From Escherichia coli (lineage in GTDB: Bacteria; Pseudomonadota; Gammaproteobacteria; Enterobacterales; Enterobacteriaceae), in the NCBI RefSeq assembly GCF_013315695.1, contig NZ_CP054353.1: a stretch of DNA of 64,000 bases; one strand, given 5' to 3'. The position numbers and the translations under genes are program-made. Below the pieces are notes generated by a model, which saw only the letters and a list, made by a program, of their open reading frames with translations, did not search any database and was not told the DNA's origin. Positions 30,964 through 36,115 of this stretch are shown in pieces (positions within the stretch are counted from its first letter, which is position 1; each line of letters starts with the position of its first letter).

Positions 30964-33900
30964 ATGAAAAGAATGTTAATCAACGCAACTCAGCAGGAAG
31001 AGTTGCGCGTTGCCCTTGTAGATGGGCAGCGTCTGTATGACCTGGATATCGAAAGTCCAGGGCACGAGCAGAAAAAGGCAAACATCTACAAAGGTAAAAT
31101 CACCCGCATTGAACCGAGTCTGGAAGCTGCTTTTGTTGATTATGGCGCTGAACGTCACGGTTTCCTCCCACTAAAAGAAATTGCCCGCGAATATTTCCCT
31201 GCTAACTACAGTGCTCATGGTCGTCCCAACATTAAAGATGTGTTGCGTGAAGGTCAGGAAGTCATTGTTCAGATCGATAAAGAAGAGCGCGGCAACAAAG
31301 GCGCGGCATTAACCACCTTTATCAGTCTGGCGGGTAGCTATCTGGTTCTGATGCCGAACAACCCGCGCGCGGGTGGCATTTCTCGTCGTATCGAAGGCGA
31401 CGACCGTACCGAATTAAAAGAAGCACTGGCAAGCCTTGAACTGCCGGAAGGCATGGGGCTTATCGTGCGCACCGCTGGCGTCGGCAAATCTGCTGAGGCG
31501 CTGCAATGGGATTTAAGCTTCCGTCTGAAACACTGGGAAGCCATCAAAAAAGCCGCTGAAAGCCGCCCGGCTCCGTTCCTGATTCATCAGGAGAGCAACG
31601 TAATCGTTCGCGCATTCCGCGATTACTTACGTCAGGACATCGGCGAAATCCTTATCGATAACCCGAAAGTGCTCGAACTGGCACGCCAGCATATCGCTGC
31701 ATTAGGTCGCCCGGATTTCAGCAGCAAAATCAAACTGTACACCGGCGAGATCCCGCTGTTCAGCCACTACCAGATCGAGTCACAGATTGAGTCCGCCTTC
31801 CAGCGTGAAGTTCGTCTGCCATCCGGTGGTTCCATTGTTATCGACAGCACCGAAGCGTTAACCGCCATCGACATCAACTCCGCACGCGCGACCCGCGGCG
31901 GCGATATCGAAGAAACCGCGTTTAACACCAACCTCGAAGCTGCCGATGAGATTGCTCGTCAGCTGCGCCTGCGTGACCTCGGCGGCCTGATTGTTATCGA
32001 CTTCATCGACATGACGCCAGTACGCCACCAGCGTGCGGTAGAAAATCGTCTGCGTGAAGCGGTGCGTCAGGACCGTGCGCGTATTCAAATCAGCCATATT
32101 TCTCGCTTTGGCCTGCTGGAAATGTCCCGTCAGCGTCTGAGCCCATCACTGGGTGAATCCAGCCATCACGTCTGCCCGCGCTGCTCCGGTACCGGTACCG
32201 TGCGTGACAACGAATCGTTGTCGCTCTCTATTCTGCGTCTGATCGAAGAAGAAGCGCTGAAAGAGAACACTCAGGAAGTTCACGCCATTGTTCCTGTGCC
32301 AATCGCGTCTTACCTGCTGAATGAAAAACGTTCTGCAGTGAATGCGATTGAAACTCGTCAGGACGGCGTGCGCTGTGTGATTGTGCCAAACGATCAGATG
32401 GAAACCCCGCACTACCATGTGCTGCGCGTGCGTAAAGGGGAAGAAACTCCAACCTTAAGCTACATGCTGCCGAAGCTGCATGAAGAAGCGATGGCGCTGC
32501 CGTCTGAAGAAGAGTTCGCTGAACGTAAGCGTCCGGAACAACCTGCGCTGGCAACCTTTGCCATGCCGGATGTGCCGCCAGCTCCAACCCCAGCTGAACC
32601 TGCCGCGCCTGTTGTAGCCCCAGCACCTAAAGCTGCAACGGCAACACCAGCATCTCCTGCACAACCAGGGTTGTTGAGCCGCTTCTTCGGCGCACTGAAA
32701 GCGCTGTTCAGCGGTGGTGAAGAAACCAAACCGGCCGAGCAACCAGCACCGAAAGCAGAAGCGAAACCGGAACGTCAACAGGATCGTCGCAAGCCTCGTC
32801 AGAACAACCGCCGTGACCGTAATGAGCGCCGCGACTCCCGTAGTGAACGTACAGAAGGCAGCGATAATCGCGAAGAAAACCGTCGTAATCGTCGCCAGGC
32901 ACAGCAGCAGACTGTCGAGACGCGTGAGAGCCGTCAGCAGGCTGAGGTAACGGAAAAAGCGCGTACCAGCGACGAGCAGCAAGCGCCGCGTCGTGAACGT
33001 AGCCGCCGCCGTAACGATGATAAACGTCAGGCGCAACAAGAAGCGAAGGCGCTGAATGTTGAAGAGCAATCTGTTCAGGAAACCGAACAGGAAGAACGTG
33101 TACGTCCGGTTCAGCCGCGTCGTAAACAGCGTCAGCTCAATCAGAAAGTGCGTTACGAGCAAAGCGTAGCCGAAGAAGCGGTAGTCGCACCGGTGGTTGA
33201 AGAAACTGTCGCTGGCGAACCAATTGTTCAGGAAGCGCCAGCTCCACGCACAGAACTGGTGAAAGTCCCGCTGCCAGTCGTAGCGCAAGCTGCACCAGAA
33301 CAGCAAGAAGAGAACAATGCCGATAACCGTGACAACGGTGGCATGCCGCGTCGTTCTCGCCGCTCGCCTCGTCACCTGCGCGTGAGTGGTCAGCGTCGTC
33401 GTCGCTATCGTGACGAGCGTTATCCAACCCAATCGCCAATGCCGTTGACCGTAGCGTGCGCGTCTCCGGAACTGGCCTCTGGCAAAGTCTGGATCCGCTA
33501 TCCGATTGTACGTCCACAAGATGTACAGGTTGAAGAGCAGCGCGAACAGGAAGAAGTACAAGTGCAGCCGATGGTGACTGAGGTCCCTGTCGCCGCCGCT
33601 GTCGAACCGGTTGTTAGCGCACCGGTTGTTGAAGAAGTGGCTGAAGTCGTAGAAGCCCCCGTTCACGTTGCCGAACCGCAACCGGAAGTGGTTGAAACGA
33701 CGCATCCTGAAGTAATTGCCGCCGCGGTAACTGAACAGCCGCAGGTGATTACCGAGTCTGATGTTGCCGTAGCCCAGGAAGTTGCAGAACACGCAGAACC
33801 GGTAGTTGAACCGCAGGAAGAGACGGCAGATATTGAAGAAGTTGCCGAAACTGCTGAGGTTGTGGTTGCTGAACCTGAAGTTGTTGCTCAACCTGCCGCG

Positions 33901-34149
33901 CCAGTCGTCGCTGAAGTCGCAGCAGAAGTTGAAACGGTAGCCGCGGTTGAACCAGAGATCACCGTTGAGCATAACCACGCTACCGCGCCAATGACGCGCG
34001 CTCCGGCACCGGAATATGTTCCGGAGGCACCGCGTCACAGTGACTGGCAGCGCCCTACTTTTGCCTTCGAAGGCAAAGGTGCCGCAGGTGGTCATACGGC
34101 AACGCATCATGCCTCTGCCGCTCCTGCGCGTCCGCAACCTGTTGAGTAA
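30964..34149 (+). CDS. rne: Ribonuclease E
   Basis: 1061-aa [33 protein letters not shown]...; catalytic N-terminal half and Arg-rich/acidic low-complexity C-terminal scaffold. Confidence 0.98.
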
Positions 34150-34168
34150 TAATTAGCTCAAGTAATCA

Positions 34169-34196
34169 AGCCCTGGTAACTGCCAGGGCTTTTTTA
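34169..34196 (+). terminator. rne intrinsic terminator
   Basis: Stem gccctgg/ccagggc followed by tttttattt, 20 bp after the rne stop. Confidence 0.75.
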
Positions 34197-34222
34197 TTTC
34201 AGGGGTAGCATCTTTGCTGTAA

Positions 34223-34251
34223 TGACATTAGCGTTACATGTGCTGTATAAT
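34223..34251 (+). promoter_or_regulatory. Putative sigma-70 promoter of the toxin-antitoxin operon with overlapping inverted repeats
   Basis: TGACAT (34223..34228), 17-bp spacer, TATAAT (34246..34251); palindromes TAATGaCATTA, ACATGT and ATAATTAT in and around it. Confidence 0.45.
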
Positions 34252-34282
34252 TATCATCCACGCAAAGCCGAAGGATATATTT

Positions 34283-35067
<785 letters not shown>

Positions 35068-35083
35068 TTCGTTATGTCTCATG

Positions 35084-35161: not shown

Positions 35162-36115
35162 TTATTTGTTGAGCTGGAAGAGCGACAATCCCTGCATATC
35201 GGTAAATGCTTTATACGACGCCTGCAATGCCGTTTGCTGCATGATGTAAGATGAAATAGTTGCATTCCAGTCCACATCAACCAGATCGCTCATCTGCTGC
35301 GTTTGCCCTAAAGCGCGATCGCTACCTAATGAATCCAGCGACTCCAGTTCGTTCAGCTGCGTGCCTAATTCCGCGCGAACAGTCAGCACATTGTTCAGCG
35401 AGTTTTTCAGTCCGCGGTTGGTTTTATCCAGTGCCGCAGCGGCGGTTTCTTTATCCGCTTCGCTATCCGCGACCGGCGTTTTCAGGGCTGCGATGGCGCT
35501 ATCCAGCATGGCAAAAAGATTGGTTTCAGAAGCGCTACCGTCTGGTTCCGCTACCGCGTTGCTGGTAATACTGTCGAAAATTTTGTCACCCGTGTGCCCT
35601 ATCACCATCGAACGCGAAGCATCGACCTGTTGTTTAATACTTTCTGCTCCGCCTTCGTATTTGCCATCCGCCTCGCTAAACGGTGCGGATTCTGTTTTAT
35701 AACCGGCAAAAATGTAGCGCCCGTTACCGTCAGTGGTGTTCGCCAGATTCAGCAACTGGTCACGAAGCCCCTGAATATCCGTAGCCAGCGAGGCCCGGTC
35801 ATCGTCACTCAAGGTGCCATTGCTGGCGTAGACAATTTTTTCCTGAGCATTCTGGATAGCGGTGGTGACCTGGCTAAGTACACTCTCTTCCAGTGACACT
35901 TTTTGAGTGGCGAAAGTACGCGCCAGCGTGTACTGGCTGTTTTGCGCCTGTGCCTGGGAGAGAACAACAGCTTGTGATGCAGCAATGGGATCATCTGAAG
36001 AGTTAACGACTCGCTTACCCGTCGACATCTGTTCACCGTACTTCATCCATTCTGCCTGAGAATTGGTGATGCCGCGCATGTTTTGCTGGTACATCATCTG
36101 GGTACTGAAACGCAT
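35162..36115 (-). CDS. flgL: Flagellar hook-filament junction protein FlgL
   Basis: 317-aa ORF MRFSTQMMYQQNMRGITNSQAEW... Confidence 0.95.
   Translation of the reverse strand: MRFSTQMMYQQNMRGITNSQAEWMKYGEQMSTGKRVVNSSDDPIAASQAVVLSQAQAQNSQYTLARTFATQKVSLEESVLSQVTTAIQNAQEKIVYASNGTLSDDDRASLATDIQGLRDQLLNLANTTDGNGRYIFAGYKTESAPFSEADGKYEGGAESIKQQVDASRSMVIGHTGDKIFDSITSNAVAEPDGSASETNLFAMLDSAIAALKTPVADSEADKETAAAALDKTNRGLKNSLNNVLTVRAELGTQLNELESLDSLGSDRALGQTQQMSDLVDVDWNATISSYIMQQTALQASYKAFTDMQGLSLFQLNK

Follow-up and report, generated by a model that had tools for sequence, protein, structure and literature searches.

The toxin-antitoxin (TA) modules KacAT, AtaRT and AtaRT2 form heterohexamers that act as repressors of their own promoters, and de-repression by excess toxin was shown for KacAT and AtaRT. 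For ataRT and tacAT1, it was found that the heterohexamer binds the promoter with high affinity and that excess toxin reduces this affinity. The KacA operator, which was crystallised with KacA4KacT2 (5ZGN), has the sequence TGTACGGTTA-T-TAACCGTACA; R12 of KacA hydrogen-bonds the G of TGTA, R12 and R8 are essential for binding, and the D10A variant binds much more weakly (PMC6698736). Toxins of the TacT2 clade acetylate Gly-tRNAGly almost exclusively (PMC9177977), and it was proposed that AtaR2, which is glycine-free, can still be translated during toxin action (PMC7470980).

The DNA under study is a 64-kb stretch from Escherichia coli (the window), in which an overlapping gene pair lies downstream of rne (30964-34149, plus strand) and is followed by the convergent flgL, starting at 35162. 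The first gene (34283-34576, plus strand) encodes a 97-aa antitoxin of the DUF1778/TacA family with an N-terminal ribbon-helix-helix (RHH) domain and is the putative repressor. Its product matched Pfam TacA1 (PF08681, E = 1.5e-26) and, weakly, RHH_1, and its start codon at 34283 is the one annotated in RefSeq. The second gene (34573-35067, plus strand) encodes a 164-aa GNAT acetyltransferase toxin, annotated in RefSeq as a GNAT family N-acetyltransferase, which may act as a co-repressor or de-repressor. The antitoxin stop codon and the toxin start codon overlap as ATGA (34573-34576). The closest solved homologue was PDB entry 7AK7, which we take to be Salmonella enterica TacAT2 and which contains four antitoxin and two toxin chains; the antitoxin matched 7AK7_C with an E value of 1.4e-45, and the toxin matched 7AK7_A with an E value of 7.7e-76. 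Neither protein was assigned a family by NCBIfam at E ≤ 0.001. Judged by the overlap of the genes and the homology of both products to characterised pairs, this is a TacAT2-like module of the GNAT/DUF1778 type II group. The identities AtaRT2 of O157:H7, which is a different locus (ECs4261-4262), and AtaRT were considered for the cassette and rejected.

Several features of the coding region were noted. An in-frame ATG at 34238, which is located within the operator-promoter and upstream of the predicted transcription start, lengthens the mechanical open reading frame to 112 aa; it can be dismissed as the start codon because both the homologues and the RefSeq annotation begin at 34283. Eight consecutive A residues (34566-34573) run straight into the ATGA overlap. 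The arrangement points to translational coupling, and slippage could occur at the homopolymer. The antitoxin contains a single glycine among its 97 residues, and by analogy, the low-glycine logic proposed for AtaR2 may apply to it.

The module was found to be carried by a cassette of about 870 bp (promoter, antitoxin and toxin; 34202-35082 of the window) that is a presence/absence polymorphism. It was present in 685 of 5,426 complete E. coli genomes (approximately 13%), every time between rne and flgL; the remaining 4,741 genomes had about 57 bp of unrelated intergenic DNA in its place. The junctions were derived from a custom pairwise alignment of filled and empty sites. On the left, the junction zone spans 34202-34217: a short TCTTTG (34211-34216) was again shared with the cassette-free genomes, and divergence started at 34217. 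Considering that identity with cassette-free E. coli stopped at 34201 and resumed at 35083 on the right, it could be concluded that the promoter is part of the cassette. Neither flanking repeats nor a recombinase gene was seen for the cassette. The intrinsic terminator of rne (34168-34197, plus strand), with a 10-bp stem and a 4-nt loop (stem 34168-34191) and the T-run tail TTTTTATTTCA, was also found in the cassette-free genomes; it insulates the cassette promoter from rne transcription. A decayed form of the locus was observed in E. coli HS-02 (NZ_CP172818.1, 1201-1967). There, promoter and operator are preserved as far as the position corresponding to 34261, beyond which A-rich filler follows; no antitoxin gene is left, and the annotation lists just a pseudogene fragment of the GNAT C terminus.

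The initial annotation had proposed a promoter immediately upstream of the antitoxin gene, and the promoter scan bore this out. The strings that it named, TGACAT (34223-34228), TATAAT (34246-34251) and AAGGA (34271-34275), are all present at these positions. TATAAT was rightly assigned as the -10 hexamer (plus strand, 6/6 consensus positions). The proposed -35 hexamer TGACAT with its 17-nt spacer had to be replaced: it is one base out of register and agrees with TTGACA at one of six positions. The -35 hexamer is ATGACA (34222-34227, plus strand, 5/6), which is followed after 18 nt by the -10 hexamer. The combination matches the consensus at 11 of 12 positions, and no other match of at least 11/12 occurred on either strand of the window (34222-34251 alone). 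A match of this quality was reached in just 0.2% of dinucleotide shuffles of the 133-nt rne-antitoxin intergenic region. With near-consensus hexamers and a spacer within the 16-18-nt range, this is, by sequence criteria, a strong sigma-70 promoter directly upstream of the antitoxin gene, beyond what chance would give.

From standard sigma-70 geometry, the transcription start region is predicted at 34257-34260 (plus strand), 6-9 nt past the -10 hexamer, and the CCA motif located there was kept in the Enterobacterales relatives. AAGGA, on the plus strand 7 nt upstream of the ATG, is the Shine-Dalgarno sequence, and relatives have GGAGG or GAGGA in this position. The operator and the -10 hexamer are flanked by a direct repeat, TGCTGTA (34215-34221 and 34241-34247), at a distance of 26 bp. 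In the representative of the most common E. coli version, TGTTGTA stands in place of the first copy, which other species lack; the repeat is therefore probably due to chance.

The site of main interest is a 19-bp imperfect dyad, GTAATGAC-ATT-AGCGTTAC, at 34219-34237 (no strand assigned), centred on T34228, which is the putative operator. It can also be written in a 21-bp form, TGTAA...TTACA (34218-34238). The E. coli copy, GTAATGACATTAGCGTTAC, covers the -35 hexamer, which lies within its left arm, and the first 10 bases of the spacer, and it is unique in the 64-kb window at up to three mismatches. The 19-mer was invariant among four aligned E. coli versions. One of them, EC21, was fetched as the representative of 625 of 686 E. 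coli genomes with 95-99% identity over the stretch; its differences from the window (34217, 34241 and 34261) spare both the 19-mer and the -10 hexamer. The right arm of the E. coli copy is degenerate: only five of eight arm positions are complementary, and 88% of shuffles scored as high. Therefore, the dyad would not have been recognised without a comparative set.

Such a set was obtained by a scan of one genome per species, which gave 66 loci encoding relatives of the antitoxin with 47-82% identity; the upstream regions of 64 of them were examined. The source taxa were Enterobacterales, Xanthomonadales, Marinobacter, Methylocaldum, Betaproteobacteria, Alphaproteobacteria, Desulfobulbaceae and Acidobacteria, and genera with dyad loci included Xanthomonas, Dyella, Marinobacter, Methylocaldum, Comamonas, Rhodoferax, Sphingomonas, Mesorhizobium and Acidocella. 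When the upstream regions were aligned by anchoring at the start codon, the dyad was found upstream of the antitoxin gene in 62 of 64 relatives, with the consensus GTAATGAC-ATT-GTCATTAC. A strict-pattern scan detected one dyad per matched locus of about 3.3 kb, and only upstream of the antitoxin gene. The dyad is a perfect palindrome (19/19) at one locus (L061) and nearly so at three others (L045, L051 and L057). The promoter is shared as well: ATGACA or a one-base variant was kept in nearly all related loci, and a -10-like hexamer at a spacer of 17 or 18 nt was present in 60 of 62, with an extended -10 TGn in 16 of those. The position within the promoter of the TA operon itself, overlapping the -35 hexamer, is thus common to 60 of 62 relatives, and the family consensus is a pseudo-palindrome whose length falls in the range (about 19-27 bp) with room for two RHH dimers.

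In 23 unique sequences from outside Enterobacterales, the dyad contained 1.29 bits per position, whereas the 12-nt 5' flank contained 0.06 bits and the 3' flank, including the -10 hexamer, 0.35 bits. Therefore, shared recent ancestry of the flanks cannot account for the conservation. Among themselves, the Enterobacterales sequences are close relatives (0.60 bits in the 5' flank) and share a deviation in the right arm, which has AGCG or TGCG where the consensus has GTCA; this could reflect ancestry rather than function.

To locate the symmetry, every possible centre was scanned in 52 unique sequences. The best centre was position 10, the central T corresponding to 34228 of the window, with 6.17 of nine pairs complementary; any other centre gave at most 4.38. 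The outermost three pairs were complementary in 85-90% of these sequences. This result bears on the form of the operator put forward in the initial annotation, in which TAATGaCATTA (34220-34230) over the -35 hexamer, ACATGT (34236-34241) in the spacer and ATAATTAT (34247-34254) over the -10 hexamer would each bind an antitoxin dimer. The three palindromes do exist at these coordinates. TAATGaCATTA is a perfect 5+1+5 palindrome inside the conserved block, its inner AATGaCATT occurs in the family consensus, and its centre (position 7, 34225) was the second best in the scan, with 4.38 of nine pairs. However, the symmetry around position 7 decays past four pairs, and TAATGaCATTA, although it lies inside the dyad, is centred on 34225 rather than 34228. 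In relatives of the Salmonella, Klebsiella and Enterobacter type, it is broken (GACATCTGCG; GACATCTG), whereas complementarity of the outer GTAA...TTAC pairs persists at 85-90%. ACATGT is not conserved in other species, which have ACGGCT, ACGCGT and others, and EC21 has ACATGC. ATAATTAT consists of the -10 hexamer plus adjacent bases, and in relatives it is replaced by TATGATTAA or TATACTTAA, which are not palindromic. Taken singly, none of the palindromes exceeds chance in this A+T-rich DNA: three 6-mers were present against 1.9 expected (reached by 30% of shuffles), an 8-mer palindrome was reached by 40% of shuffles, and a 5+1+5 palindrome was reached by 8.5%; all three classes jointly were reached by 1.2%. 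An operator made of three short palindromes is accordingly improbable, and the conserved site is the single 19-bp dyad.

Next to be weighed is that the conserved block is a promoter and nothing else, the operon being constitutive or controlled elsewhere. The promoter is indeed near consensus, and the most conserved bases of the block (TGAC, positions 6-8) coincide with the -35 hexamer. However, a -35 hexamer leaves the conserved GTA upstream of it unexplained, and it does not account for the mirror-image xxCATTAC in the spacer, which contains 1.2-1.9 bits at positions 14-19 across a scattered phylogeny. RNA polymerase does not read the promoter spacer in a base-specific manner. The right arm lies in the spacer and yet mirrors the left arm, and it therefore points to a DNA-binding protein with two-fold symmetry. 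The perfect and near-perfect palindromes at L045, L051, L057 and L061 also argue against a block without an operator, as does the fact that every characterised DUF1778 antitoxin (KacA, AtaR and TacA) binds its own promoter. Hence, there is little probability that no operator is present here. That the dyad instead serves recombination or mobility of the cassette, as an att- or attC-like end, would agree with the strain variability of the cassette (685 of 5,426 genomes) and with the start of the dyad at 34219, 2 nt from the left junction zone, but it is very improbable since no second copy with up to three mismatches occurs at the right end or elsewhere in the window, each related locus has a single copy at a fixed distance to the -10 hexamer and start codon in any genomic context, the cassette lacks a recombinase gene, and in other Enterobacterales a conserved block lies upstream of the dyad, which means that in those genomes the dyad does not mark the end of an element.

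In many Enterobacterales (loci L003, L004, L006, L009, L013, L014, L017-L019, L021 and L022), this additional block precedes the antitoxin start by about 60-200 nt; E. coli lacks it. It reads TTGTCAAGACCC...GGTTGACCC, followed by GGTTCGATTCC. The latter resembles the T-arm of a tRNA; ARAGORN found no tRNA at this block in 12 related loci. The block may be left over from an island end, or it may be a further regulatory element. In a scan of viral contigs for GTAATGACATNNNCNTTAC, 111 matches were obtained, none of which adjoined a TacA-like gene according to tblastn. In so large a collection, a 15-base pattern probably gives such hits by chance, and the scan therefore yields no evidence for a phage-borne module.

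The putative repressor is encoded by the operon itself. In a phmmer alignment, R12 of KacA, the base-contacting arginine, aligned with R17 of the antitoxin, which lies in the strand LNLRIKP of the N-terminal RHH domain, and LNLRIKP was invariant in the relatives. Considering the promoter match, the fixed place of the conserved dyad, the antitoxin's homologues and the aligned contact arginine, the best explanation is that 34219-34251 is the promoter-operator of a TacAT2-like cassette between rne and flgL, with an antitoxin-bound dyad over the -35 hexamer; a probability of roughly 0.8 is assigned to this reading. The earlier suggestion of a self-regulatory operator overlapping a sigma-70 promoter is in this way given strong support by the comparative data and by homology to KacA, AtaR and TacA, with binding and repression predicted from sequence. 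Very probably, the dyad is the usual site through which a TA module represses itself.

From this promoter-operator arrangement, we infer binding, repression, the stoichiometry on DNA and a dependence on the toxin:antitoxin ratio, as follows. The near-consensus sigma-70 promoter would drive a bicistronic antitoxin-toxin operon. Two antitoxin RHH dimers would bind the two 8-bp arms, whose centres are about 11 bp apart; each arm is in turn pseudo-palindromic, as GTAA|TGAC (centre 4.5 in the symmetry scan). The dimers would most likely be joined in a toxin-antitoxin2-antitoxin2-toxin heterohexamer (A4T2). Occupancy of the dyad would keep RNA polymerase off the -35 hexamer, and the operon would be repressed. 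If KacAT and AtaRT are a guide, occupancy would depend on the toxin:antitoxin ratio, with weaker binding and de-repression when toxin is in excess.

In Pectobacterium carotovorum DSM 30168, two paralogous modules (L008 and L009) were found on the same contig, about 4 kb apart. Their operators differ (GTAATGAGATAAGCTTTAC vs GTAATGACATTAGCGTTAC), and so does the residue before the DNA-binding strand (RVTLNL vs RETLNL); a similar pair of variants was seen in L041. Co-variation of operator and antitoxin may insulate the two paralogues. It is possible, though rather unlikely, that the dyad is a clade-wide 'address' of TacA2-type antitoxins, with a range extending from Acidobacteria to E. coli, and that the degenerate right arm of Enterobacterales has been retained as part of an asymmetric operator. 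If so, the combination of a strong and a weak half-site could tie repression strictly to the toxin-bridged heterohexamer, and the asymmetry could tune cross-talk or insulation between co-resident paralogues, such as those of P. carotovorum.

The promoter-operator reading supplies a precise predicted 19-bp operator, with named critical bases, for an uncharacterised GNAT/DUF1778 cassette of E. coli. The prediction extends to Salmonella TacAT2, which is implicated in persister formation. The consensus GTAATGAC-ATT-GTCATTAC may be used for promoter annotation in this antitoxin clade and for the design of de-repression or cross-talk experiments. The general understanding of TA autoregulation is unchanged.

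Among the solved homologues, TacAT2 of Salmonella stands closest. The similarity is of orthologous grade for both antitoxin (1.4e-45) and toxin (7.7e-76), and the locus from S. enterica subsp. diarizonae (L017), whose antitoxin is 94% identical to 7AK7_C, carries the equivalent dyad CGTAATGACATCTGCGTTACG at an equal distance from its TATACT. A literature search found no published operator for TacAT2 and no published work on the present locus. The two differ in genomic site, the E. coli cassette lying between rne and flgL, and in the dyad centre, which is ATT-A in E. coli and ATC-T in Salmonella; TAATGaCATTA is therefore broken in the latter.

Compared with kacAT of Klebsiella pneumoniae, both sites are pseudo-palindromes of 19/21 bp with GTA...TAC ends and an A/T centre, and 12 of 19 core positions of the E. 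coli site TGTAATGACA-T-TAGCGTTACA are identical. Two DUF1778 RHH dimers in a T-A2-A2-T heterohexamer are bound in the case of KacA, and the same would hold here by analogy. The antitoxins, however, are distant (E = 1.7e-7), and KacA has R8 and D10 where S/T13 and N15 are found here; the inner arm sequence differs accordingly. Conservation of R17 together with the differing S/T13 and N15 fits the shared dyad ends and the differing inner arms. Furthermore, the KacA palindrome spans the transcription start, whereas the dyad described here overlaps the -35 hexamer and spacer (PMC6698736).

With ataRT of E. coli O157:H7 and tacAT1 of Salmonella, the locus would share the binding of the antitoxin or TA complex to its own promoter. 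For TacAT1, two binding sites were reported, and acetylation of TacA at K44 changes how TacAT1 binds; here, one conserved site was seen, and a second, weaker site downstream of the -10 hexamer in Enterobacterales is conceivable. Because the KacA site spans the transcription start and TacAT1 has two sites, it may be concluded that the placement and number of operators vary within the superfamily.
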